This document shows, piece by piece, positions 1,106 to 28,343 of a stretch of 32,000 nt of DNA (the first letter of the stretch is position 1; every line of letters begins with the position of its first letter). Location of the stretch: contig JAQTOB010000004.1 in NCBI GenBank assembly GCA_028713575.1, positions 38,393 to 70,392 on the forward strand, written 5' to 3'. The position numbers and the translations under genes were made by a program. Below the pieces are notes generated by a model, which did no database searches, had not been told where the DNA came from, and was given only the letters and a program-made list of their open reading frames with translations. Origin of the DNA: Patescibacteria group bacterium. Lineage in GTDB: Bacteria > Patescibacteriota > Patescibacteriia > UBA2591 > UBA6264.

Positions 1106-2854
1106 ATGGCCGGACAGACAGATAACAATATTGTGCGTTTTTTAGCCCAACACGGGAAGATTTCTCAGGAGCAATTTCAGGAGCTTATTGCTGAAGCTCA
1201 AGAAGTTAATATCTCTGCGGATCGGCTTTTGGAAACAAAAAAAATTCTTTCAGAAGAAGATGTCGCTTGGGCCAAAAGTCAGCTTTATAATATTCCCATT
1301 GCTGATATTTATGGTATGGTGGTGGACAGAAAAGTTTTAGAAATAATCCCCAAAGATGTGGCCGAAAATTATAATGTTGTCGCCTTTGCCAAAGAAAAAG
1401 ATATTTTAAAAGTGGCGATTCTTGACCCGAGTAATTTTAAGGCGCGTGAAGCGGTGGAATTTGTCGCCCGAAGAAAAAATTTAAAAGTGGAATTATGTAC
1501 CGCCGCCACAACAGCCCTGAAAAATATTTTGGCTCAATATGGCGGTTTGTCCGCGGAGGTTGAAGAAGTGGTTGGCGCGGTTGAATCAAGATTTGCATCA
1601 GTGGGCCAAGAGAAGAAAATAACCGGCGAAATGGACATAGAAAAAGCGGGACAAGAAGCACCCATTGCCAAATTGGTCAGTTCTATTTTAAAATATGCCG
1701 TGGACAACCAAGCCTCAGACATTCATATTGAGCCGCTTTTAGATAAAACCAGGGTGCGTTACCGCTTAGACGGCATTTTAAAAGAGACCGCTCTTTTGCC
1801 CGGGCACCTTCATTCTTCTATTATTTCCAGAATAAAAGTGATGGCCAATCTTAAACTTGATGAAACTAGAGTACCCCAAGACGGCCGTATCCGAATTATG
1901 GCTGCCAACAGAAAAATAGACCTTCGTATTTCTGTTCTTCCTCTTTTTGACAAAGAAAAAGTGGTGATGAGAGTTTTAGACCCGATGCGCAGAGTTTTTG
2001 ATTTAAAGGATTTGGGGCTTTGGGGGAATGCGCTGGAAGTGGTTAATAAAAATTTAACGCGGCCGCACGGATTAATTTTGATTACTGGACCGACTGGTTC
2101 TGGTAAAACCACTACGATTTTCGCCGCCATGAAAATTCTTAATCAGCCGGCGGTTAATGTGGTGACCCTGGAAGACCCGATAGAATATTTTTTGTCCGGG
2201 GCCAACCAGTCGCAAGTTAAGCCAAACATTGGTTATACTTTTGCTTCGGGCTTGCGTTCAATTGTTCGGCAAGACCCGGACATTATTATGGTGGGCGAAA
2301 TTCGCGACACGGAAACAGCTGAATTATCTACGCACGCAGCCTTGACCGGTCATGTTGTTTTGTCTACTCTGCACACCAATGATTCTTTTGGCGCGATTCC
2401 TCGTTTAATTGATATGGGCATTGAACCGTTTTTAATTGCCTCTTCAATGAATTTGGTTATTGCTCAGCGTTTGGTTAGAAAAATTTGTCCTCATTGCGCC
2501 GAACAAGTTGAACCCTCGCCACAGATTGAAGAATCAATTGAACAAAGCCTAAAAGACACTAAGGACATTGATTTGGATTATTATCGGGATAAAAAAACTA
2601 ATCATTTGAAATTTTATCGCGGGCGCGGCTGTTCTCGTTGCAACAATGAAGGTTATCGCGGTCGTTTAGCCATTTTTGAAGCCTTGGAAATAACTGACGA
2701 AATGAAAAAAATTATTACTAGCGGCTGTAGAATAGAAGAAGTTAAAAATGAATTTTGCCGGCAAAAAATGATTACCATGCTTCAAGACGGATATATCAAA
2801 GTTTTGCGCGGAGAAACGACCATTGAAGAAGTTTTAAGGGCCGCCAGAGAGTAA
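1106..2854 (+). CDS. pilB: Type IV pilus assembly ATPase PilB (GspE-family secretion ATPase)
   Basis: 582 aa. It has an N-terminal T2SSE_N-like domain, Walker A GPTGSGKTT, Asp box LEDPIEY, Walker B DIIMVGEIRD, His box TGHVVLSTLHT and a tetracysteine CPHC...CSRC. All catalytic motifs are intact. Confidence 0.95.
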   Translation: MAGQTDNNIVRFLAQHGKISQEQFQELIAEAQEVNISADRLLETKKILSEEDVAWAKSQLYNIPIADIYGMVVDRKVLEIIPKDVAENYNVVAFAKEKDILKVAILDPSNFKAREAVEFVARRKNLKVELCTAATTALKNILAQYGGLSAEVEEVVGAVESRFASVGQEKKITGEMDIEKAGQEAPIAKLVSSILKYAVDNQASDIHIEPLLDKTRVRYRLDGILKETALLPGHLHSSIISRIKVMANLKLDETRVPQDGRIRIMAANRKIDLRISVLPLFDKEKVVMRVLDPMRRVFDLKDLGLWGNALEVVNKNLTRPHGLILITGPTGSGKTTTIFAAMKILNQPAVNVVTLEDPIEYFLSGANQSQVKPNIGYTFASGLRSIVRQDPDIIMVGEIRDTETAELSTHAALTGHVVLSTLHTNDSFGAIPRLIDMGIEPFLIASSMNLVIAQRLVRKICPHCAEQVEPSPQIEESIEQSLKDTKDIDLDYYRDKKTNHLKFYRGRGCSRCNNEGYRGRLAIFEALEITDEMKKIITSGCRIEEVKNEFCRQKMITMLQDGYIKVLRGETTIEEVLRAARE

Positions 2855-14108: not shown

Positions 14109-17100
14109 ATGAAAATCAAAAACAAAATTTTTAGGAGGGTGAAACAAAAAATCACAAAAATTATTTTTGTTTTTTTAATGGTCGCGACGATGACGGGGAG
14201 TTTAACTAACATTGCTCAAGCTTATTTATTAGACGCGGTTGATTTGTTAGGACAAATGGACACTTTAGACGAACCGATTTATACGCGAAGCACGCAAAAC
14301 AATCCTTATAGTACCATAGTCAGCAATGCGGTTTTCAACGGCGCGGAAGATGTGAAAATTGATACAGTTCATCACCGTTTATTCGTCGCCGACCGCAGTA
14401 ACAATAGGGTTTTAGTTTATGATTTGGACGAAAATAATCAATTTGAACATTATGCCGCTGATTATGTTTTGGGTCAGCCGGATTTTACCACGGTCAGCGC
14501 CGGCACCACGCAGAGCAAATTCAACGCTTCAAGATATATCGCCTATGATTCCAATCATCAGCGTTTGTTTGTTTCCGAAGAAGAAAATAAACGGGTAACG
14601 GTCTTTGATTTATCCGAAGGAGTTACCACTGGTATGGACGCTTCTTATGTTCTTGGTCAGCCGGATTTCACCACCAGCGACACTACCACCACTTTATTTG
14701 GTTTTGATTATTGTTGGGGACTGGCTTATGACTTAGATAATGATTATTTGTATGTGGCTGACGGATCTTCCCATAATCGTATTTTAATTTTTGATGTTGC
14801 CCCCGAAGAAATGTATAACTATAAACCGGCCTTTGCTCATTTGGGCTCTTTGATCGGCACTGCTTTGGACGATTCTCATTTTGAGGGTCCCCATGGCTTG
14901 GTTTTGGACAAGACCAATGATATTTTATATGCGACCGACACCGACCATCATAGAATAATGATTTTTGATACAGAAGAAATTATCAATGGAGAAAGCGCGA
15001 TTAATGTCCTTGGTCAATTAAATTTTACTTCAGATAGCACCAGCACTAGCAGCGTGGGTATGAATTACCCTTATAATGTTGATTTTGATGGAGTTGATGA
15101 GCGTTTATTTGTTGCTGACGCTACCAATCATCGCGTAATGGTTTTTGACGTTTCTGGGGGAGTGACAGATGGCATGGAAGCCTCTTATGTTTTGGGTCAG
15201 ATTGATTTTGACGCCAACAGTTCTGGCGCGACCCAATCTAAATTTAATAAGCCTCGCGGCGTGGCCTATAATTCCGTTACCAAAGAATTATATGTCGGCG
15301 ATTCAGGCAATAATCGGATAATGGTTTTTGATTTATCCCAAGGTATTACTAACGGCATGAACGCTTCCAAACTTTTAGGACATACCACGCGCGGCGGCGT
15401 GCCGAATTGGACTTTTACCACTGCCAATCAAATGGGAGCACCTATTGACGACATCGGTTTGCACACGCCCGATAAAGTCCATTTTGATTCTGTCGGGCAC
15501 CGTTTGTTCCAATCAGACCAGAACAATAGCCGTATCTTGGTTTATAATTTGGATGAAAATAATAATTTAATTGACCATGTTGCGGATTATGTGATTGGCA
15601 GAGATGATTTTTTTACCGGCGGCTCGGACAATACCGGTGGCGGTCAAGCCGCTTTTAAATGGCAACATAATTCAATTCTTGATTCCGGGCGTCAGCGTTT
15701 ATTCGTTTCTGATTCTTATAATAACCGGATTATGGTTTTTGACATTTCCGAAGGCATCGCCAACGGCATGAATGCGGCTTATGTTCTTGGTCAACCGGAT
15801 TTTACTTCTTATGATGCGATTACTACCATTAGTGGCGTTAACGGGCCTCGCGGTTTTGCTTTTGATTCAAGCACTGACCGTTTATTTGTTGCCGACCGCA
15901 ATAATCATCGGGTTTTGGTTTATGATGTGGCGGAAATTGAAACCGGCGAAGACGCAATCAATGTTTTGGGCCAGTCCGACTTCACTAGCAACTCCGCAAC
16001 CACTAGTATCAGTGGCATGGACTATCCTTATGATTTAGCTTTGGACCAAACCAATCAACGTTTATTTGTTATTGACAAGAACAACAACCGAGTGGTTGTT
16101 TATGATGTGGCGGAAATTACTAACGGCGAAGACGCGGTGGCGGTTCTGGGTCAAGCTGATTTTAATTCTAAAATTGATACCGTTGAAGATGTTGAACAAA
16201 GGATTCAAACCCAAGATAGATTATTTAACACCAGGGGAGTGGCTTATGATTCGGTTAATAATTGGTTATTTGTCGTGGAATACGCCGGTCATCGGGTAAT
16301 GGTATTTGATGTCACGGAAATTGAAAACGGCGAGCCGGCAATCAATGTTTTAGGAGACGAAACTTTTAATACGACTCTTTTGGAAACAATTGATGCCAAT
16401 GAAAATACGAATCGGGTCGCGACTGCCAGCAATTTTTGGACGCCCGAGACAGCGGAAATAGACGGAACCAATAGAAAATTATATGTTAGCGACCAAAATC
16501 ATAACCGGACCATGATTTTCCAATTGCCCAAAATTACGACTGCTTCATTAAGTAATGGCACTGTAGGCGAAGTTTATAGTCAAACAATTTCCGGTACTGG
16601 CGGCGCTGAGCCCTATGTTTGTTCTTTGGTCTCAGGCACTTTGCCCACTGGTTTATCCTTAAACGCTAATTGCACTATTACCGGCGCGCCATCAGCGGCC
16701 GGAACAGCCAATAATCTTGTTATTCGTTTTTCTGACAGTTCAATTACTTCGCCGGAAACAGTCGGCTTATGGCACAACAAAACTTTTAGTTTAACTGTTG
16801 ACGAGTCTTTGGCTAACATTAAAATTTCAGCCAAAGCCGAATTAACCGCGGCCTTGGCGACTTATAATCAGGAGGATTACACCGAAGAAAACTGGACAGG
16901 TCTAAATACTTATAAAACCGATGGCGACACAGCTATTGATGATGCCGAAGATACAGCCGGAGTTACAACAGCTAAAAATACGGCTATCAATGGAATGGCC
17001 GGAGTGGAAACCATTGCTCAAACACTTAAAACAATTACTGCTTTTTCTGTTCCTAATCAAGTTGGCGCGTCAACGATTAATCAAACCGACAAGACAATCA

Positions 17101-18851
17101 AATTAGTGGTTCCGTTTGGCACAGATGTTACTGACCTTGTGGCGTCTTTTACTACTACTGGCGCCTTGGTTAAAGTTAGCGGAGCAACACAAACCAGCGG
17201 TCAAACCGCTAATGATTTCACAAATTCTTTAATTTATACTGTTTCCGCCGTCAATGAGACAACACAGAATTATACGGTTAGTGTCACGGTCTTGACTAAT
17301 ACGCAAACCGCCATAGATGATGAGGGCGCTGTTACCATTGATAACAGCACGCCTCAGGCGGTTATTATTAATCCAACTCAGGCAGTCACTGTTGATATTG
17401 CCGAAGACACGGAAGGCCCGAGCATTGATGTTAGTTCATTTATTAGTGCCGGAACAGGAACCATTCCTCAAATTACTATTACAGCCGCGAACGCGAATAA
17501 TGTTAATGTAGCCATTCCCGCCTCCACCACTGTGACCAGTGCTGATTCGGCTTGGGATGGAGTAATTGCCGCGCCAGTCGTGACCACGGTCACTTTGCCC
17601 AATACTTCAGGAGAAATGAAAACATTAAGCACAGCCATTGAAGTCGGATTCTCCGGTGCCAAATTATCTTTTGATAAGGCGGTTAGGCTATTATTGCCGA
17701 ACCAAGCGGGGAAAAGAGTAGGTTACATTAGAACAGGAATTGATTTTACGGAAATAACTTCGGTTTGTGACGCAGACAGCCAAGCGGTTGGCGACCTCTT
17801 GTCCGCTGACGGTGAATGTAAAAAAGATGTGGGCAATGATTTAGTTGTCTGGACAAAACATTTTACTTCCTTTGCCACTTTTAGCGCGGTTCCTTTGTCT
17901 AGTGGCGGAGGAGGCGGCAGCGCTCCTGTTTTAGTGGGCCCCTCTGATTTAAGTTTAAAAATAAATAATGATGCATTGGAAACTTTTTCAAGAAATGTTG
18001 TTTTAAATATTAATGCCGCTAATGCCACGGAAATGTTAGTCGGCGATACTGTTGATTTTGCCAATGTTGATTGGGAAGAGTATGCGAGTTTGAAAAATTG
18101 GACCTTAACTTCTGGCAATGGAGAAAAAATAATTTATATTAAATTTAGAGACAGCAGTCACAATGAATCTTCTGTAGTTTCCGACACGATTATATTAGAA
18201 GAAGAAATAGTTGCGGTTGGCGAGGGAAGCTTGGTTAAAACTGCTGATTCTACTGCTTTGTATTTGATTCTTAATGCCAAGCGTCATGTTTTTCCGCACT
18301 TGGCCGTTTATCATTCCTGGTCTTATCCAAATGATTTTTCCACTGTTAAAACAATTACTACTGTTGAATTAAATCAATATCCGGAAGGCGATGCCGTTCC
18401 TTTCCGCGACGGCTCAATGTTCAGGGGCACGACCCAATCCTTGTATGGTAAATCCGCTTCTGCTGTTTTTTATGTAGAAGACGGGAAATTAAGAGCAGTT
18501 AAATCAGGAGAAATTTATCAGACACTTTTTAATGACCCGAATTGGTCATTAGTCACTTGGGTTCCGGACGACTTGTTGGCCAAGTTTAATTATGAATTGT
18601 CTAATGATTTAGATTCGTCAGATATCCATCCCAATGGTTCTTTGGTTAAATACCCTGATGCTCCTGCGGTTTACCTGATTAAAAATGGCAAAAAGCAACC
18701 CTTTTCTTCTTGGGACATTTTCGTCGCTAACGGTTATAGTCAAAGGAAGATTTTTGTCATTTCGGCTGAAGAGACCTATGAAACAGCAGAAATAATCAGC
18801 AGTTTAGCCGAATCCCTGACTACGCCAGTCATTGCTGCGATGTATCAATAG
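14109..18851 (+). CDS. Giant secreted surface protein: 12 NHL-type blades, Ig-like domains and a C-terminal 'VY..G.KR' repeat module
   Basis: 1580 aa with a signal or anchor segment (ITKIIFVFLMVATMTGSLTNIAQA). There are 12 occurrences of the NHL-like strand motif [NH][NHKS]R[VIT][LMTV][VI][FY][DNQ], such as NNRVLVYD and NHRVMVFD, interleaved with YVLGQPDFTS-type motifs. Further elements are a He_PIG-like Ig domain (GTVGEVYSQTISGTGGAEPY...LPTGLSL), further beta-sandwich domains, a GGGGG linker and a C-terminal module shared with the gene at 22036. Confidence 0.9.
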   Translation: MKIKNKIFRRVKQKITKIIFVFLMVATMTGSLTNIAQAYLLDAVDLLGQMDTLDEPIYTRSTQNNPYSTIVSNAVFNGAEDVKIDTVHHRLFVADRSNNRVLVYDLDENNQFEHYAADYVLGQPDFTTVSAGTTQSKFNASRYIAYDSNHQRLFVSEEENKRVTVFDLSEGVTTGMDASYVLGQPDFTTSDTTTTLFGFDYCWGLAYDLDNDYLYVADGSSHNRILIFDVAPEEMYNYKPAFAHLGSLIGTALDDSHFEGPHGLVLDKTNDILYATDTDHHRIMIFDTEEIINGESAINVLGQLNFTSDSTSTSSVGMNYPYNVDFDGVDERLFVADATNHRVMVFDVSGGVTDGMEASYVLGQIDFDANSSGATQSKFNKPRGVAYNSVTKELYVGDSGNNRIMVFDLSQGITNGMNASKLLGHTTRGGVPNWTFTTANQMGAPIDDIGLHTPDKVHFDSVGHRLFQSDQNNSRILVYNLDENNNLIDHVADYVIGRDDFFTGGSDNTGGGQAAFKWQHNSILDSGRQRLFVSDSYNNRIMVFDISEGIANGMNAAYVLGQPDFTSYDAITTISGVNGPRGFAFDSSTDRLFVADRNNHRVLVYDVAEIETGEDAINVLGQSDFTSNSATTSISGMDYPYDLALDQTNQRLFVIDKNNNRVVVYDVAEITNGEDAVAVLGQADFNSKIDTVEDVEQRIQTQDRLFNTRGVAYDSVNNWLFVVEYAGHRVMVFDVTEIENGEPAINVLGDETFNTTLLETIDANENTNRVATASNFWTPETAEIDGTNRKLYVSDQNHNRTMIFQLPKITTASLSNGTVGEVYSQTISGTGGAEPYVCSLVSGTLPTGLSLNANCTITGAPSAAGTANNLVIRFSDSSITSPETVGLWHNKTFSLTVDESLANIKISAKAELTAALATYNQEDYTEENWTGLNTYKTDGDTAIDDAEDTAGVTTAKNTAINGMAGVETIAQTLKTITAFSVPNQVGASTINQTDKTIKLVVPFGTDVTDLVASFTTTGALVKVSGATQTSGQTANDFTNSLIYTVSAVNETTQNYTVSVTVLTNTQTAIDDEGAVTIDNSTPQAVIINPTQAVTVDIAEDTEGPSIDVSSFISAGTGTIPQITITAANANNVNVAIPASTTVTSADSAWDGVIAAPVVTTVTLPNTSGEMKTLSTAIEVGFSGAKLSFDKAVRLLLPNQAGKRVGYIRTGIDFTEITSVCDADSQAVGDLLSADGECKKDVGNDLVVWTKHFTSFATFSAVPLSSGGGGGSAPVLVGPSDLSLKINNDALETFSRNVVLNINAANATEMLVGDTVDFANVDWEEYASLKNWTLTSGNGEKIIYIKFRDSSHNESSVVSDTIILEEEIVAVGEGSLVKTADSTALYLILNAKRHVFPHLAVYHSWSYPNDFSTVKTITTVELNQYPEGDAVPFRDGSMFRGTTQSLYGKSASAVFYVEDGKLRAVKSGEIYQTLFNDPNWSLVTWVPDDLLAKFNYELSNDLDSSDIHPNGSLVKYPDAPAVYLIKNGKKQPFSSWDIFVANGYSQRKIFVISAEETYETAEIISSLAESLTTPVIAAMYQ

Positions 18852-22035: not shown

Positions 22036-25000
22036 ATGAATAAACTTAAAAAATTGATTGCTTTGGGAACAACCGTTTCAATGCTTTTGAGTTTAGTAGT
22101 GGTGATGCCTGCTCGAGCCGTGACCATCGCCGATGGCGATTTGGTTATGACCACCAGCAGCTCTGCTGTTTACTATATTCAAGGAGCGTATAAACGCGTT
22201 TTTCCTCATTATAATGTCTATCTTTCTTGGGGCTATCCTTCTGATTTTTCTACCGTTAAAACGGTCAGCACTTCGGAATTAGCCTCTTATACCGACGCCA
22301 ATCCAATGCCGTTCCGCGACGGAGCGCTCTTCCGCGGCACTGCTGCCAGTTTAGGCGATAAAGATGCAACTGCTGTTTTTTATGTTGAAAACGCTCAGCT
22401 TCGCCCTGTTTTATCAGAGCAAGTTTATCAAGCGTTATTCAAAGATACAGACTGGGCAAAAGTTACTTGGGTTCCTGATGATTTATTGAGCAAATTCAAT
22501 TATGAAATGGGCTCAAATCTTTCTTCATCTTCAACCCATCCTGATGGCAGTTTGGTCAAGTATTCTAACTCAGACCAAATTTATGTCATTGAAAGCGGAA
22601 AAAAGAGAGCGATTTCTGCTACGGCTTTTGATGCCAACCGCTATAGTGTCGCCAATGTCATTACCATTGACTCAAGCGAAACTTATGCTAACGGTTCGGC
22701 TGTCACTGGCGTTGAATCCAGCTTATTAACACCAGGTTGGCTTGGAACCACTGTTGCTTCCGGTGCTTTGACCGCGAGTTTATATAACCCTCCGGCTGGC
22801 GCCACTATTCCGAACAAAGCTACTAATGTTTCTCTTTTAAAAGTTAAATTAACCGCGGGTAATACCGCTGCCACTATTAGTGGTTTGACTTTTAAGAGGA
22901 GTGATTTGGGCGCAACCACTGATTGGGACACCCTTTATGTTTATGAAGGGAATGATTGTATTACTCCCAATGGCCGTAGCTTAAGTTCGGACGACCATAC
23001 TGTTGAATTCGCGGTAAACATTAGCGTTCCTGCTAATGGTTATAAAGTTCTTGAATTGCGCGGTGATTTGAAAGCCGGTGGCGCGACCGCCAACAACCGC
23101 CATGCTTTCCAAATAACTGAGGTAGCAACTTCAGCCACGGTTAGCGGCTTGCCTTTAACTGGCAATGTGATGATTGTCGGCTCGGTCAATGTAACCACTG
23201 CTATTATCAGCGCCGGCACCCTTCCGATCAATCCTTCGGTCGGTGCTCAGGACGCCGAAATCGCCAACTTTAAGATTCAGGCCGGCGATAACGACATTAC
23301 TTTCAGCCAGATCGTCTTCACCTTTGCTGGCACTATGTCCAGAGGCGATATCACTAATCTTAATCTTTATTTGCTTGGTGAAACCGAATCTTTGGCGAGT
23401 GTTTCCGGTATCGCTTCCAACGACACCTTCACTTTGACTCTTGATTCTCCCTATGTCATTACTAAAGGACAGACCAAAAATTTTGTGTTAAGAGCTGATT
23501 TGACTGGTGAAGTCGGACGAACTTTGGAGATGTATATGGAAGAAACCTATCATTTGGCGGTTAGCGACAACGAATATAATTTCGGCGCCGCTGTCACCAA
23601 TAGTTTTGGCAACGCCGATGTGACTGCGTTAACTTTACAGGGTGGTGAAATCACCATGGCTGATAACGGTCCTTTGGCAGGAAATGTTGCGCAAAACCAA
23701 CAGGATGTGGTTTTAACCAAAATTGCTATTACTGCTGACCGGAGCATTGAAGTCCGCAAGTTATTTGTTACCTTGGCCAGTGATGTGGCGGGTGCTGCTA
23801 ACCCGACTGACGGAGTCAGCGACTTAAGAATTAAAGATGAAGATACTGGTCAAACTTTGATGACTCCGACTTCTGCAGTCGGCACCACCATCTCCGGTAA
23901 TTATCTGATGACTGGAACCTTTAATTTAACCGCCAATACTACCCGTAATTTAGTTATTACGGTTGACATTGGTGTTGATGCGGGTGATGCCCTTGACGGC
24001 AAATATGTTTCAGCCGACTTAAAAATGGTTGACCGCAGCGACGATTCAGTGGCGGACAACAGTAGCGGTGAAGAAGCGCAGATGCGTGATTCTTCCACTG
24101 GCGACTGGATTTTAACCGCTGATATTATTCCGATTAGCGTTTCTGGCGAACACCAGACTATCCAAACCCCGGCTTTGACCACGGCTGTGGCTTCAACTCC
24201 GGTTTCCGGCTTGACTTCCATTAAGGGTGCGTCAAAAGTTGATGGTATTGGCATTGTCTTTACCGCCGGTGATGCTTCTGCTGTTTCTTTACGGCAGTTC
24301 TCAGTCAGAGCTTATGTCAACAGCGCCGCTACTTTCTTGGCGACCAATGAAGACACTTCTCCGACTGGCGAAGTCACCACGGTCTACTTGTATGATGACT
24401 CCGGAACTTTATTGGCTTCTAAAACATTAAGTGCCACTTCCGCGAATCATGATTATGGCGCGGCTACTTTCAGTGGTCTTACTGTTACCATTCCGGCTGG
24501 TGAAAACAAGAAATTAACGGTTAAATTTGATGTCAATTCAACTTTAGAGGCGGCTAGATATGTTGCCTTTGGTATTGACGACGCGAGCATTACTGCTTAT
24601 GACAGCGAAGGTTCAACCGTGGATGTCACGGGCGACCTGAATTTCTACGCCAGCGACCTCAGCGTTCCGACTCACTACACTTATCTTGACACCGGTGGCG
24701 CTTTAACCATGGCGCAGGATCCGTCAACGCCTGATTCAGATATTGTTTTGGCGGGCGCGACTGACGTGATTATGTCCAAGATTAAATTCACCGCTACCAA
24801 AGAAGATTGGACGGTCAGTAAGTTGAGAGTTGAAATGGCTACTTCAGCCAATGAGAGCAGCGTCTCTAAAGTCAAGATTTCTTATCCGGGCGGTAGCGCC
24901 ACGGGCACTTTGTCCGGCGGTTTTGCTAAATTCACTGGCCTTAACTGGCTAATTGAAAAAGACACCGAAGAAATTTTGACCATCAGCGTTGATTTGGCGG

Positions 25001-25785
25001 ATATCAATCAGGATATCGCCACCACTGGTCGCGACTTGAAGGTCGGCCTTGATTGTTCCGATGCTGACGACGATTGTGAAGCCATCGGCACCTCTTCAAC
25101 CGTTTTGGGCGATGCTGACAGTGAGTTAAGCGATGTGGACGGCAACTCAATGTATTTGAGAAAGTCTCGTCCGACCGTTGCTGCTGCTTCTTTACCATCA
25201 AGTCAATTAATTAATGGAACCAGAGTCATTAACAAGTTCACTGTTACAGCTGATGCTGCGGGTGCCATCACCCTTAAGAAATTCAGTTGGGACGTTAATG
25301 TGAGCGACTACAATACTGACGGTTTATCTGTCACTAATTGGAGAGTTTATGACACTGGTAATTCAACCGCTTTGGCTGGTCATTGGTCAAACGCTACAAC
25401 CACCAGCACTTCTGGCGCGATTGCCGTTACCAACGGAGCCAAGGTTATGATTGTTGAACTTGATGACGAAATCGAAATTGCTGCCGGCACTAGCAAAACA
25501 TTTGAGTTAAAAGCAGATGTTTCTAGCGCTGCCATTTACGATTCAGTCAGCTCAAGCTTACTCAACGATGATAACGACACAGCGGTTAGAACCGGCGGTT
25601 TAGCCGACCATGATACCCAAGGTGTCCAACTTGAAGGCAGTGTTGCCGTTGATTTCCTCTGGTCTGATAAGGCCCGGGGTGCCAACCACACTGATTCATA
25701 CCAGACAACCTATGATGACTGGACCAATGGTTACTTGATTGACGTGTTGCCGACCGAAACTGTCTCATTGATCTATCCTAGCTAA
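22036..25785 (+). CDS. Giant secreted surface (S-layer or adhesin-like) protein: N-terminal 'VY..G.KR' repeat module plus reiterated beta-sandwich modules
   Basis: 1249 aa with an SD (agagga) and a signal peptide (ALGTTVSMLLSLVVVMPARA). Residues of about 30-230 are homologous to the C-terminus of the 14109 protein. After that come about 8 divergent modules of roughly 110-130 aa sharing a pattern such as ...V.L.K.K.TA....V....F.... The composition is rich in T/S/A/G/D. Confidence 0.9.
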   Translation: MNKLKKLIALGTTVSMLLSLVVVMPARAVTIADGDLVMTTSSSAVYYIQGAYKRVFPHYNVYLSWGYPSDFSTVKTVSTSELASYTDANPMPFRDGALFRGTAASLGDKDATAVFYVENAQLRPVLSEQVYQALFKDTDWAKVTWVPDDLLSKFNYEMGSNLSSSSTHPDGSLVKYSNSDQIYVIESGKKRAISATAFDANRYSVANVITIDSSETYANGSAVTGVESSLLTPGWLGTTVASGALTASLYNPPAGATIPNKATNVSLLKVKLTAGNTAATISGLTFKRSDLGATTDWDTLYVYEGNDCITPNGRSLSSDDHTVEFAVNISVPANGYKVLELRGDLKAGGATANNRHAFQITEVATSATVSGLPLTGNVMIVGSVNVTTAIISAGTLPINPSVGAQDAEIANFKIQAGDNDITFSQIVFTFAGTMSRGDITNLNLYLLGETESLASVSGIASNDTFTLTLDSPYVITKGQTKNFVLRADLTGEVGRTLEMYMEETYHLAVSDNEYNFGAAVTNSFGNADVTALTLQGGEITMADNGPLAGNVAQNQQDVVLTKIAITADRSIEVRKLFVTLASDVAGAANPTDGVSDLRIKDEDTGQTLMTPTSAVGTTISGNYLMTGTFNLTANTTRNLVITVDIGVDAGDALDGKYVSADLKMVDRSDDSVADNSSGEEAQMRDSSTGDWILTADIIPISVSGEHQTIQTPALTTAVASTPVSGLTSIKGASKVDGIGIVFTAGDASAVSLRQFSVRAYVNSAATFLATNEDTSPTGEVTTVYLYDDSGTLLASKTLSATSANHDYGAATFSGLTVTIPAGENKKLTVKFDVNSTLEAARYVAFGIDDASITAYDSEGSTVDVTGDLNFYASDLSVPTHYTYLDTGGALTMAQDPSTPDSDIVLAGATDVIMSKIKFTATKEDWTVSKLRVEMATSANESSVSKVKISYPGGSATGTLSGGFAKFTGLNWLIEKDTEEILTISVDLADINQDIATTGRDLKVGLDCSDADDDCEAIGTSSTVLGDADSELSDVDGNSMYLRKSRPTVAAASLPSSQLINGTRVINKFTVTADAAGAITLKKFSWDVNVSDYNTDGLSVTNWRVYDTGNSTALAGHWSNATTTSTSGAIAVTNGAKVMIVELDDEIEIAAGTSKTFELKADVSSAAIYDSVSSSLLNDDNDTAVRTGGLADHDTQGVQLEGSVAVDFLWSDKARGANHTDSYQTTYDDWTNGYLIDVLPTETVSLIYPS

Positions 25786-25788
25786 ATT

Positions 25789-26150
25789 CTTTGGAGACCA
25801 GGTCTCCAAAGATAGATATAACGTTTGACTGAAGCGCGTGTCCGCCTCTGGTGGACTAAAATCAGTCCATCTGGAATAATATAATAAAAATATTAGTTCC
25901 ATCGCCAAAATCCCCTTAACAGGGGATTTTGGCTTTTAAAAGGGCGCAATACCTGCCTATCGGCAGGTTTTGGAGACCAGGTCTCCAAAAAAAGTCTCCA
26001 AAAAAATCTTGCGAGGTTTTTTAGTTTTAGAGACCAGTTTTTTGGAGACCTGGTCTCCAAAAAACCCTGCGAGGCCTTTTAGGGATTGTTTTTTTTAAAT
26101 TAAAATATTATAATAATTGGAGACCTAATTTGGAGACCTGGTCTCCAAAT
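25789..26150. repeat. Cluster of REP-like palindromes TTGGAGACC-W-GGTCTCCAA with half-sites
   Basis: Full palindromes lie at 25789-25811, 25968-25990, 26038-26064 and 26128-26150. Half-sites lie at 25994-26006, 26025-26037 and 26117-26125. A co-repeated CTGCGAGG motif lies at 26009 and 26067. Confidence 0.9.
25904..25937 (+). terminator. Rho-independent terminator downstream of the 1249-aa gene
   Basis: A perfect 13-bp stem GCCAAAATCCCCT-taac-AGGGGATTTTGGC is followed by TTTT. Confidence 0.7.
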
Positions 26151-26174
26151 TACTCCAAATTAAAAAATAGCCTT

Positions 26175-26885
26175 ATGAGAAAAATTAAATTTGTTAATGA
26201 TGAGTATTATCATATTTATAACCGTGGAGTAGATAAACGGATTATTTTTGAGGATAAAGATGATTTAAAAAGATTTTTCCAAAGTATGAAAGAGTTTAAT
26301 GTTTTAGAGCCAATAGGTAGCATTTATGAAGCGGTTCGTTGTAAAACTTTTAGAGAAACTTTTGGAGACCAAGTCTCCAAAAGTTTTACAAATAATGAAA
26401 GATTGGTTGATTTTATTTGTTACAATTTACTTCCCAATCATTATCATTTCATTTTAAAACAGTCAGTTGAAGATGGAATTAAGAAATTTATGCATAGACT
26501 CGGATTGGGTTACGCAATGTTTTTCAATCAAAAGTATAAGCGCAACGGTTCATTGTTCCAAGGACCGTTTAAGGCGATTCATATTGATTCCGAAGCTTAT
26601 TTGCTTCACTTGAGCGCTTATATTAATTTGAATCATAGGGTTCATTCTAAATTTGAGGATTTTGGAGACCTTGAGGATTTTGGAGACCTGGTCTCCAAAA
26701 GATATAAATCAAGCTGGGAGGAATATTTGGGATTAAATCAAGAAAAATTTTGTCAAAAGGAAATTCTTTTAGACCAATTTGACACAATAAAAAGCTATAG
26801 AGAGTTTGCCGAAGAATCATTAAAAGGAATAAGAGAAAGAAAGGAAATAAAAAAGTTTCTTTTAGATGATCAAATAATTGGTTGA
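26175..26885 (+). CDS. Y1/HUH tyrosine transposase of the IS200-like / REP-associated (RAYT) type
   Basis: It carries YHIYNRGVDKRIIF..., an HUH motif in LPNHYHFILKQ, GSLFQGPFKAIHI, and a catalytic-Tyr helix LSAYINLNH. The ATG at 26175 is preferred over the TTG at 26130, which lies inside a palindrome. The CDS contains in-frame copies of the flanking palindrome. Confidence 0.8.
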   Translation: MRKIKFVNDEYYHIYNRGVDKRIIFEDKDDLKRFFQSMKEFNVLEPIGSIYEAVRCKTFRETFGDQVSKSFTNNERLVDFICYNLLPNHYHFILKQSVEDGIKKFMHRLGLGYAMFFNQKYKRNGSLFQGPFKAIHIDSEAYLLHLSAYINLNHRVHSKFEDFGDLEDFGDLVSKRYKSSWEEYLGLNQEKFCQKEILLDQFDTIKSYREFAEESLKGIRERKEIKKFLLDDQIIG

Positions 26886-26921
26886 TTGACAAACGGTTAA
26901 TTTTCTGATAAAATTTGGCAT

Positions 26922-28343
26922 ATGAAGATTAAAATTATTGCCATTTTTATTTTTGTAATTTTGCTGTTTCCGGGCAAGTTATTTGCTTCTGCCGCGCCGA
27001 TTGAAGAAAAATACTGGTGTGGCAATTTTGTTTCTTCTGGTTCTTGCGACCGTGAGCGAAGCAATGTTGACTGGGAAAATAAAACTATGGTTTTAAATAA
27101 AAGAGACGACAATACTTATTCATCTTCCAGTATTTGTTGGACCAATGAAATAAGGTTTGGAAAACATATTCACTCCATTACGAATTTAAGTGGCGTCTAT
27201 TCTTCGCCCGGCGGGACAAGCGTTAAAGCTTTTTTTCGTTTTGGCGATGCGGAAGAAGAATATCTTTTAAACTGGGGAGGAATTTATGAACCCAAAGAGG
27301 CGTTTAAAAGTTTTCGCCTGAAAATATTTCTTGCTTCAAATAATTCTGCCGTTTCTCCCAATGTTTCTCAGATTTGTTTTAAAGTAAGATTGCAAGACCG
27401 CTCAATTGAAGGAATTAAAAGTCGGGACAGAACGAGGGTTTCTAATTTGGAAAAGACTAAAAATGTTTTAAAAAAATATTATGAAGATTTTAATCAATAT
27501 CCTGTTGTTGATATTCAGCCAACCGAGAAACAGCGTCAATGGGATTTATTAAAAAATACTTTATCTTCTGCTTCTTTTAATCATTACGAAAATTATACTC
27601 GTGGTTTTATTGATCAGCCCGAAAATGTTAGTGAGGATTATCAATATGGTTATTTAACCAGTTCTCTTGGTCTGTATTATCTTCTTTGGACAAAATTGGA
27701 AGATATTAATTCCGAGCGTTTTGAAAATTCTTGGACCGGAGAAATTTTAAACGTGGATTGTTCTCCGCCGATTTATTGCATTTATTCTCGGGCCGATGCC
27801 GACCCAGAGGTCTTGTTAAAAGAATTTAATAATAAACAAAAAAAGGAAAATATTGAGGATGCGGAATTTATTAGAACGCCGGACGATTCCAAGGTTTGGC
27901 TAAAGACAAAAAATCGCCGCGTTTGGCTAAGAACCCCGGAGATTTTTAATCAAGCTAATGGGAACTGGGATAAAATAACAATAAAAAACACCCTGGCAGA
28001 TGTTCCTTTATTAAAATTCATTAAATTTAAAGACAAAGAAGAGATATATTTAGTTAGCGAGAAAGGGTTTAAAAGGCACATGTCTAACAGTCAAATCCTT
28101 AATTTTTATGGGCAAATTTCAGAAATTGTTGTTTTTGATAATGAAAAAATTATTAATCTTTTACCCGAAAACCGTTTAATCAAAGGCAAGGGACTGTCAG
28201 AAGTCTATTTTCTTGACCAAAAAATAAAAAGATGGATTACTTCTCCTGAGGTTTTCGCAAAAATGGGATTTGATTGGAATGAAGTAGTAGAAGTGGACCC
28301 CCGGGAATTAGATTATTATCCGGAAGCAACCCCGATGTTTTAG
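26922..28343 (+). CDS. Secreted protein with an internal pilin-like (GspG-fold-like) segment and C-terminal 'VY..G.KR'-type repeats
   Basis: 473 aa with a signal peptide (IIAIFIFVILLFPGKLFASA). SRDRTRVSNLEKTKNVLKKYYEDFNQYPV...DYQYGYLTSSLGLYYLLWTKLED resembles the conserved post-helix core of CPR pilin or pseudopilin proteins. The C-terminus has three approximately 50-aa repeats (KVWLKTKNRRVWL.., EIYLVSEKGFKRHM.., EVYFLDQKIKRWI..). Confidence 0.75.
   Translation: MKIKIIAIFIFVILLFPGKLFASAAPIEEKYWCGNFVSSGSCDRERSNVDWENKTMVLNKRDDNTYSSSSICWTNEIRFGKHIHSITNLSGVYSSPGGTSVKAFFRFGDAEEEYLLNWGGIYEPKEAFKSFRLKIFLASNNSAVSPNVSQICFKVRLQDRSIEGIKSRDRTRVSNLEKTKNVLKKYYEDFNQYPVVDIQPTEKQRQWDLLKNTLSSASFNHYENYTRGFIDQPENVSEDYQYGYLTSSLGLYYLLWTKLEDINSERFENSWTGEILNVDCSPPIYCIYSRADADPEVLLKEFNNKQKKENIEDAEFIRTPDDSKVWLKTKNRRVWLRTPEIFNQANGNWDKITIKNTLADVPLLKFIKFKDKEEIYLVSEKGFKRHMSNSQILNFYGQISEIVVFDNEKIINLLPENRLIKGKGLSEVYFLDQKIKRWITSPEVFAKMGFDWNEVVEVDPRELDYYPEATPMF

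Follow-up and report, generated by a model that had tools for sequence, protein, structure and literature searches.

Palindromic units shared between the flanks and the reading frames of RAYT-like Y1 genes in Patescibacteria

Why should a gene carry, within its own reading frame, copies of the palindrome that also stands in its flank? The question is raised by a 32-kb stretch of DNA from a Patescibacteria group bacterium (contig JAQTOB010000004.1, positions 38,393 to 70,392; the whole of this stretch is called the window here), in which an open reading frame (ORF) at 26175-26885 encodes a Y1 HUH protein resembling the REP-associated tyrosine transposases (RAYTs; REP, repetitive extragenic palindrome). 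A preliminary description of the window explained the two in-frame copies as an element that had inserted, in this lineage, into the gene of its own presumed mobilising enzyme. We compared the window with 79 Patescibacteria loci, fetched with up to 10 kb of flank, and found instead that palindromes occupy four slots at such genes, upstream of the start codon, at two positions in frame and at the 3' end. They covary as DNA, are copied in blocks within a gene and are inherited vertically with it, and the in-frame copies lie in loops of the protein and are filtered against stop codons.

The assignment of the ORF as a Y1 HUH enzyme of RAYT-like fold, already made in the preliminary description, was supported by profile and structure comparisons. 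The protein matched the Pfam family PF01797 (Y1_Tnp) over residues 74-151 with 26.6 bits against a cut-off of 23 (E 7e-6); its score for the NCBIfam profile REP_Tyr_transpos (NF047646), 20.7 bits, is far under that profile's cut-off of 80. An AlphaFold model, made from an alignment of 31 sequences (A1) that also served for calling invariant residues, has a mean predicted local distance difference test (pLDDT) score of 69, with strands at residues 78-86 and 89-96 and a helix at 140-151. Its top fold match in the PDB by Foldseek was 4er8_A, the E. coli RAYT with a bound REP hairpin (E 7e-4), followed by further matches to the ISDra2, IS608 and IS200 TnpA proteins (2a6o, 2vjv and 2xm3 among them), and a PDB search by sequence gave only a chance match to an integron integrase (E 0.54), which was rejected. 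H89 and H91, Y149, N153 and H157 are invariant across the 31 aligned sequences; the metal ligands of the E. coli TnpA-REP are H59, H61, N119 and H123 (PMC3479197), and E. coli RayT, which reads YINPVKH, has as a sequence pattern the same Y-x3-N-x3-H spacing as the window protein. The two in-frame palindromes stand between conserved blocks, as had been described: site 1 precedes the HUH strand, and site 2 starts 10 codons past the metal ligand H157, directly after the Y149-x3-N153-x3-H157 helix, and ends ahead of the invariant SSW, with the 318-nt catalytic core exactly between the two sites. The surface-loop placement that had been put forward for checking was also borne out by the model, in which pLDDT falls below 50 at residues 48-60, 63-73 and 159-174, the loops that hold both palindromes.

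Within the window, the palindrome TTGGAGACC[A/T]GGTCTCCAA occurs in six copies, where 0 are expected in 32 kb, all of them inside 25791-26698. Likewise, the 19-mer TTGGAGACCNGGTCTCCAA with up to two mismatches gave six matches against 0.00 in 100 shuffles, and the 8-mer arm TTGGAGAC occurred 15 times against 0.64 in the shuffles. The in-frame sequences and the flanking palindrome are indeed copies of each other, as the preliminary description held. Two copies fall inside the ORF and the other four in the 389-nt intergenic stretch ahead of it; the remaining ~29 kb of the window contained 0 copies when scanned, and the variant GGAGACC/GGTCTCC is common to all six. The sequences and coordinates first given for the in-frame copies, 26359-26383 and 26655-26701, proved exact, and both copies keep the frame of the ORF. 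At site 1, which is translated as TFGDQVSKS, the core reads cttttggagaccAagtctccaaaag, in which an A at 26372, the result of a G>A change that turned the central CAG into CAA, disrupts the innermost pair; an outer arm at 26339-26356 pairs with 26374-26391 with 94% complementarity. At site 2 the sequence is gaggattttggagacc followed by ttgaggattttggagacctggtctccaaaag, translated as FEDFGDLEDFGDLVSKR, and the reported half-site beside the full copy is a perfect 18-nt tandem duplication (26653-26670 / 26671-26688), by which the left half of site 2 is present twice and the protein gains LEDFGD. This duplication was found in none of the aligned homologues, and together with the GGAGACC/GGTCTCC variant and the site-1 G-to-A change it is what is lineage-specific in the window. 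As single-stranded DNA (ssDNA), the two intragenic copies fold with -13.5 and -11.2 kcal/mol (z about -5). Two of the upstream copies make up a REPIN-like doublet, in which palindromes of 25 nt, in opposite loop orientation, 100% complementary and separated by a 45-nt spacer, with symmetric inner half-arms at 25994-26006 and 26024-26037, form one long ssDNA hairpin of -37.3 kcal/mol (z -9.9).

The arrangement in the window is one instance of a widespread one. A word-indexed protein search gave more than 3,500 matches, mostly annotated Patescibacteria, and homologues amounted to 11,780 cluster representatives (50% identity) at E<=1e-3 and to at least 574 matches in species-representative genomes. 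The loci were scanned for perfect palindromes with stems of 9-19 bp and loops of 1-5 nt, and the presence of a site was scored by a single threshold for a good palindrome, with a denominator of 79 for the upstream position and of 80 genes for the others. A palindrome was found upstream of the ATG in 64/79 loci, at residue ~65 (site 1) in 45 of the 80 genes and at residue ~171 (site 2) likewise in 45/80; a 3' copy, overlapping the stop codon or following it, was present in 58/80. The upstream unit is most often centred 25.5 nt ahead of the ATG, and the 3' unit 16.5 nt beyond the stop codon, which it often overlaps (TAACTTGG). Dispersed copies are few: in a count that covered the flank more than 1 kb from the genes as well as the rest of the window, only 22 copies turned up in 901 kb of flank. 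The window itself has four upstream copies and no 3' copy, and its closest syntenic relatives, L001-L003, are likewise without a 3' copy. The records label L001, L002, L003 and L007, which plainly fall within this Patescibacteria family, 'uncultured Gammaproteobacteria bacterium', and these labels are probably wrong.

The peptides that homologues encode at the two in-frame positions vary among proteins and are often the same at both sites of one protein. For instance, P0021 has KFGHRVSK twice, P0018 has FGSSAPK three times, and P0030 has MRGSASH three times, the upstream copy being translated there as part of an N-terminal extension and supplying one of the three; codons that are reverse complements of each other encode the paired residues F-K, G-S/P/T, D/H-V, S-A and M-H. 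In a second, independent set of 109 metagenome proteins, a peptide word is common to both sites in 61. Furthermore, nine distant paralogues in the same loci (31-47% identity, YIHLNP/WSSY-type) have their own unrelated palindrome families, with copies upstream, at site 1, and at the C-terminus or 3' end, but none at site 2. These paralogues are second Y1 genes in the flanks of L010, L011, L019, L025, L030, L034, L041, L050 and L077, and examples of their palindromes are TGTCAAACA..TGTTTGACA, GCGGAGGC..GCCTCCGC and a 17-bp ATGTCGGACAT stem. The claim of a lineage-specific insertion into a mobiliser gene is thus not supported, since homologues, syntenic orthologues and the distant paralogues have a palindrome at the same codons. 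The preliminary description had named ancestral protein sequence as the alternative to an insertion; orthologues do encode a peptide of like kind, but the reason is that their own DNA is palindromic at this place, and not that the peptide is ancestral protein sequence. Of the analogy that it drew with Rickettsia palindromic elements (RPEs), the in-frame translation of the palindrome holds and the rest of the likeness does not.

We then defined the unit and its constraint. Identity among the copies of a gene is ~1.0 over positions -11 to +11, and between intragenic and extragenic copies it drops to 0.1-0.2 at +/-12, which delimits the unit as 23 nt, perfect and symmetric, ACTTGG-N11-CCAAGT. The foot ACTTGG..CCAAGT is found family-wide (TTTGG..CCAAA in the window's clade) and is followed by 4-5 variable pairs and the centre; beyond it, the outer extension is C..G on extragenic copies and A..T on intragenic copies, consistently across genomes. 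In 44 site-2 hairpins 92% of cells are paired, and the four variable pairs have undergone 22, 19, 14 and 13 double changes and 0 one-sided ones, with far lower values in shuffling and sliding controls; the covariation at site 1 behaves like that at site 2. Over the full set of 204 hairpins, the 2040 stem cells comprise 1985 Watson-Crick pairs, 12 G:T pairs and 43 other mismatches. A fixed relative orientation of the four copies, like that of the inverted REPs beside RAYTs, was looked for and rejected: either orientation occurs without a consistent pattern, the one rule being that stop-forming loops are avoided within the ORF. No one-sided asymmetric tail or head of the GTAG/GTGG type is conserved on the units. 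The lack of wobble enrichment together with the use of both orientations therefore suggests that the constraint, or the process, acts at the level of DNA. Conservation of the peptide was considered and rejected: FGDLVSK, LGGSTSK, LRCPAPK and MRGSASH vary freely, while the DNA stays palindromic by double changes.

The variable inner stem also reveals how the copies of a gene are related. Regardless of orientation, 158 of the 214 pairs of copies from one gene agree over all the inner 15 nt, while copies from different genes have a mean of 6.8 differences. Paralogues in the same metagenome-assembled genome (MAG), ~50% identical, carry different hairpins, with different variants in the pairs L018/L020, L026/L035, L031/L067 and L064/L066. 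L018 and L024, which share 88-92% identity in all three protein segments, have no hairpin in common, and hairpin turnover is fast relative to that of the protein. In the genes with a mismatch in one arm (L009, L022, L032 and L065), the same mismatch recurs at all sites and in both orientations, and the unit must therefore be copied, beyond mere selection for pairing. These results show that the whole unit is frequently copied among the sites of a gene, in either orientation, so that its copies remain identical even as different genes diverge. Gene conversion over short patches, or template switching from one self-complementary repeat to another, would account for the copying, and nicks made by the enzyme in cis may possibly start it. 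In the window, a tandem copy of one arm (12-18 nt) adjoins five of the six palindromes (25994-26006, 26024-26037, 26117-26125, 26344-26355 and 26653-26670), among them a 12-nt half-arm duplicate at site 1 (26344-26355 / 26356-26367) that is absent from the preliminary description. As a general signature of copying, half-arm duplication was rejected: neighbouring duplicates occur in 6/204 hairpins across all loci, not above control distances, and are mainly a peculiarity of this window, in which replication slippage at the hairpins is a possible cause.

The gene and its sites are inherited together. Orthologues of the upstream 1249-aa gene and of the downstream 473-aa gene flank the Y1 gene in L001, L003, L004 and L005, and the gene therefore has a fixed chromosomal position in the window's clade. 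The syntenic orthologues carry variants other than the window's at the same sites; thus L001 has GGGGACC/GGTCCCC in the upstream copy, at site 1 and at site 2. In L002-L005 the feet are CTTAG/CTTGG at the upstream copy and site 1 and TTTGG at site 2, and in the window and L001 they are TTTGG throughout, a pattern that, in this unrooted clade, would fit one unit spreading to the other sites. In a neighbour-joining tree with the hairpin columns masked, about 17 genes that lack a cognate site 1 group in one block and those that lack site 2 in others, and the 3' copy is missing from the clade of the window. Judged from this tree, site losses are inherited and neither repaired nor regained, and such clade-wise, unregained absences point to ancient sites that are overwritten, not newly hit. 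The frame leaves its own mark: among loops of the form T-N-A, all intragenic ones are TCA or TTA (31/31), and TGA or TAA occurs in 0/31 intragenic versus 19/47 extragenic loops (p=1.8e-5). Orientation is therefore filtered by selection for an open frame, and from this filter it follows that the genes are functional.

Truncated genes were observed as well. In L005, positions 14729-14940 hold a second copy comprising the N-terminal ~60 codons with its own TATAAT, which ends exactly at the site-1 palindrome, where the flipped loop reads TGA. This fragment adjoins the orthologue of the gene that lies downstream in the window, and it stands ~8 kb away from the full-length copy, to which its last ~70 nt are nearly identical, the remainder being ~85% identical. 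In L045, a truncated paralogue of another subfamily (~1641-1907, minus strand) has its own palindrome, GGACATCGGATGTCC, upstream and at site 1; its homology stops right after site 1, and it adjoins the 3' palindrome of the main gene.

The upstream copy appears to be embedded in a promoter. A -10-like hexamer follows the upstream unit in 48/54 loci against 19.6 expected; it begins exactly +2 after the unit in 27 loci, 33 loci have a TG suited to an extended -10, and in 18 the hexamer and the ATG are 6 nt apart. A 17-nt spacer places the -35 on TTGGnn of the left arm, and the right arm gives the TG. The form TAnAAT at +2, with ~6 nt to the ATG, is seen for example in L024, L028, L033, L039, L044, L057, L060 and L076. 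These matches to consensus elements suggest a leaderless promoter built on the upstream palindrome, and the position of the palindrome in the promoter makes autoregulation by the enzyme through this copy plausible, if the protein binds the unit. In the window, no clear -10 was found between the gene-proximal copy and the ATG. The 3' copy was also considered as an intrinsic terminator and rejected, a T-run not being consistently present after it.

Taken as a whole, we favour the reading, at a probability of about 0.55, that the palindromes are ancient cognate hairpins of the enzyme, that local copying keeps them alike, and that the internal copies are tolerated passengers. The window gene belongs to a large family of RAYT-like Y1 HUH genes in Patescibacteria, each with a private 23-nt palindrome of conserved foot, variable inner stem of 4-5 bp and loop, in up to four slots: in the promoter, in frame at residues ~65 and ~171, and overlapping or following the stop codon. 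If RAYT/REP and IS200/IS605 are taken as models, the palindrome would be the DNA hairpin that the encoded enzyme binds, as suggested by the co-localisation of the two, by the private variant of each paralogue and by relatives such as 4er8. Its copies would be homogenised by the conversion or template switching proposed above. The two intragenic copies sit in disordered surface loops that would tolerate almost any translated palindrome, selection would act on the reading frame and the avoidance of stop codons alone, and a palindrome once lost is not regained. Since the loops are tolerant and lost sites are not regained, we regard the internal copies as probable passengers, not as required protein or regulatory elements. 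The upstream copy would, in most relatives, give the -35 (TTGGnn), the spacer and the TG of the extended -10, and the window's clade has a looser arrangement with four upstream copies and none at the 3' end.

Several points weigh against this reading. The putative binding of the hairpin by the protein is argued from co-localisation and from relatives, and the E. coli RAYT requires an asymmetric REP with a GTAG head and a bulge, whereas the palindromes here are perfect and symmetric. The passenger status is argued from dispensability, 35/80 genes being without a copy at each site, but that more than half of the genes have kept one across deep divergence could just as well reflect a conditional function. 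The boundary of the homogenised tract is resolvable only within the variable 11 nt, because the foot is conserved family-wide. Finally, the window has neither the canonical promoter geometry nor a 3' copy, and the whole data set consists of MAGs.

The main rival, possible though unlikely in our estimate, holds that the internal palindromes are functional cis-sites, either a roadblock or operator, or points at which the segment between them is deleted, inverted or swapped. Each copy is self-complementary, and any two copies are therefore both direct and inverted repeats; such sites would give a self-limiting switch or an exchange of modules between paralogues. In its favour, the hairpins mark the limits between the N-terminal part of the protein, its HUH+Tyr core and its C-terminal helices, the truncated genes of L005 and L045 (the latter on the minus strand at ~1700-1894) terminate exactly at site 1, and the palindromes are perfectly kept in more than half of the genes. 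It would also suit the mosaic genes in which the variant differs by site (L002, L004, L005, L024, L033 and L070), L024 carrying three different variants, and in L070 the change of variant at site 2 coincides with a change of nearest relative, from L049 for the core to L040 for the C-terminus. The pairwise identities of the N-terminal, core and C-terminal segments are weakly correlated (r 0.16-0.31), but this test of discordance is crude, with short segments and a star-like phylogeny, and three cases passed its thresholds. Moreover, the genes that lack an internal copy nevertheless have intact catalytic residues and flanking copies, and an inverted or precisely core-deleted locus was found in 0/80. 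A bolder proposal, which we consider distinctly doubtful, is that the enzyme itself acts on the hairpins within its own gene, deleting, inverting or exchanging the core cassette or swapping N- and C-terminal modules with paralogues, which would yield a self-limiting switch and a shuffling of specificity, with the promoter copy closing an autoregulatory loop.

The original idea of a recent, lineage-specific insertion of a mobile REP-like element into the mobiliser gene, with the copies tolerated as inserted peptides and the shared positions as repeated independent hits on two permissive or targeted sites, is very unlikely. It would accommodate the variation of presence and absence by gene, the fast turnover of variants seen between L018 and L024, and the intragenic REPs documented in other genes (PMC3733652). 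However, the same codon positions are used in 45/80 genes, in syntenic orthologues and in the 31-47% identical paralogues, clades that lost a site never regained it, and the palindrome is as scarce elsewhere as counted above. In addition, the unit of 23 nt is not a multiple of 3, and a simple insertion would therefore shift the frame, and the intragenic copies keep their own A..T outer pair, against C..G on the extragenic ones, across genomes.

Slightly less credible still is that the palindromes act as mRNA hairpins, for stability, pausing, RNase III cleavage or termination, with the DNA symmetry incidental. All copies would indeed also fold strongly as RNA, and the 3' copy lies right after or overlapping the stop codon, where a stabilising or terminating stem-loop is expected. 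Nevertheless, G:U is not enriched in the stems (the 12 G:T cells stand beside 43 other mismatches), one-sided changes at variable pairs number 0, and copies are found in either orientation. In most loci the upstream copy precedes the -10 of the putative leaderless promoter and would therefore not be transcribed with the gene; furthermore, no consistent T-run follows the 3' copy, and no Rfam family over the window region reached its threshold, the sub-threshold matches being of miRNA precursors to the long inverted doublet. A tRNA or known RNA family in the region was likewise rejected, the window's tRNAs being located elsewhere. Least probable of all is that the palindromes are unrelated to the Y1 protein, as sites of another factor or chance promoter or terminator modules: the upstream copy does overlap promoter elements, but against it, the association is strict both across 80 independent genomes and among distant paralogues, with variants that are private to each and differ even between paralogues of the same genome, and a promoter role leaves the in-frame copies and the dyad symmetry unexplained.

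Table 1. Features of the Y1 gene and its palindromes in the window
Feature	Position	Strand	Details
Y1 HUH nuclease/transposase-like protein, RAYT-like fold	26175..26885	+	236 aa from ATG
HUH motif	26439-26447	+	H89-Y-H91; invariant in A1
Catalytic Tyr helix	26619-26645	+	Y149-x3-N153-x3-H157; invariant in A1
Site 1, intragenic palindrome	26356..26386	.	AAACTTTTGGAGAC-CAA-GTCTCCAAAAGTTT; residues ~62-70, ..TFGDQVSKS..
Site-1 left-arm tandem copy, degenerate	26344..26355	+	AAACTTTTAGAG; 12-nt duplicate of 26356-26367
Site 2, intragenic palindrome	26678..26700	.	TTTTGGAGACC-T-GGTCTCCAAAA; residues ~168-175, ..FGDLVSK..
Perfect 18-nt tandem duplication	26653..26688 (26653-26670 / 26671-26688)	+	TTGAGGATTTTGGAGACC x2
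Gene-proximal upstream palindrome	26128..26150	.	centre 36 nt before ATG; left-arm half copy 26117-26125
REPIN-like doublet	25960..26070	.	palindromes 25968-25992 (loop CAG) and 26038-26062 (loop CTG)
Most distal copy	25789..25811	.	4 nt past stop of upstream 1249-aa ORF

Further features were seen around the gene. A 13-bp perfect hairpin at 25904-25933 (GCCAAAATCCCCT/AGGGGATTTTGGC), followed by TTTT, stands outside the palindrome family and is probably the terminator of the upstream 1249-aa gene; the only terminator-like site found near the Y1 gene, at 25913-25925, was assigned to that upstream gene. At 26886-26914, from the stop codon of the Y1 gene onwards, there is a strong promoter-like site (TTGACA-17-TAAAAT, 11/12, with TG), which lies ahead of the next ORF downstream at 26922; because of it the window may have no room for a 3' palindrome. 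The window also holds two very large ORFs, at 14109-18851 (1580 aa) and 22036-25785 (1249 aa). The 1249-aa ORF has a signal-like N-terminal segment and repetitive Ser/Thr/Ala-rich sequence, and the C-terminal ~220 residues of the 1580-aa ORF resemble the N-terminal part of the L005 orthologue of the 1249-aa ORF (49% identity, tblastn).

We finally compared the family with known systems. Like the TnpA of IS200/IS605, whose enzymes bind ssDNA hairpins (structures 2a6o, 2vjv and 2xm3), the window protein belongs to Y1_Tnp and is encoded by a small gene bracketed by hairpins near its start and stop. However, the flanking hairpins here are identical perfect palindromes and not distinct imperfect left and right ends (LE/RE), signs of mobility are absent (synteny is kept at the locus, and its paralogues, ~50% diverged, are not near-identical copies), and N and H follow the Tyr where IS200/IS605 has Q. 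Intragenic REPs and RPEs are similar short palindromes translated in frame and tolerated at permissive positions (Di Nocera 2013, PMC3733652), but those are scattered over many unrelated genes of one genome, whereas here the host is the gene of the presumed cognate enzyme, the positions are conserved phylum-wide, and the copies evolve in concert with the flanking ones. In the portion available of a report on mitochondrial genes of Nematomorpha (PMC6649704), perfect inverted repeats in coding sequence with both arms translated are likewise described; they are far longer, belong to another genetic system, and appear there with no HUH enzyme or flanking cognate copies.

The closest likeness is to the RAYTs (TnpA-REP), with which the window protein shares the Y1 HUH fold and the HUH/Y-x3-N-x3-H active-site pattern. 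The genes of the family are accompanied by palindromes of their own, in a variant peculiar to each paralogue, as in RAYTs (Nunvar 2010, PMC2817692; Bertels and Rainey 2011, PMC3337134), and the gene is likewise inherited vertically at a fixed locus; the window adds the inverted doublet upstream. The flanking by palindromes on both sides holds at the level of the family, in the numbers given above, and the window has its four copies upstream and none 3'. The descriptions of RAYTs consulted mention flanking REPs only (PMC2817692, PMC3337134), and no internal palindrome was found in the E. coli rayT ORF, whereas the Patescibacteria family has the cognate palindrome in frame at two conserved positions of the ORF; in the literature covered, with most subscription journals outside its scope, we found no report of in-frame cognate palindromes in RAYT-type ORFs or of this Patescibacteria family. 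The palindromes here are perfect and symmetric, without a GTAG head or bulge, and REPs are imperfect and asymmetric. The window protein is ~70 aa longer, with a C-terminal helical region, it scores far below the cut-off of the REP_Tyr_transpos profile, and the host phylum, Patescibacteria, is a different one. The family bears on how RAYTs and their palindromes stay matched and on the cellular role of RAYTs, and it constitutes a widespread, unannotated feature of Patescibacteria genomes that offers many natural cases of coding sequence constrained to a perfect DNA palindrome. Its ~750-bp unit would make enzyme-hairpin concerted evolution, autoregulation through a promoter hairpin and a possible self-processing of the gene open to experiment. 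The palindromes of classic RAYTs are dispersed in tens to hundreds of copies, and their history is accordingly difficult to trace; those of the present family, counted over the flanks and the window, are few and local, a minimal version in which one gene has from two to four private copies in set places, including two within the reading frame, and in which the variable hairpin tip serves as a barcode and reveals local block overwriting, in either orientation, much faster than the protein changes.

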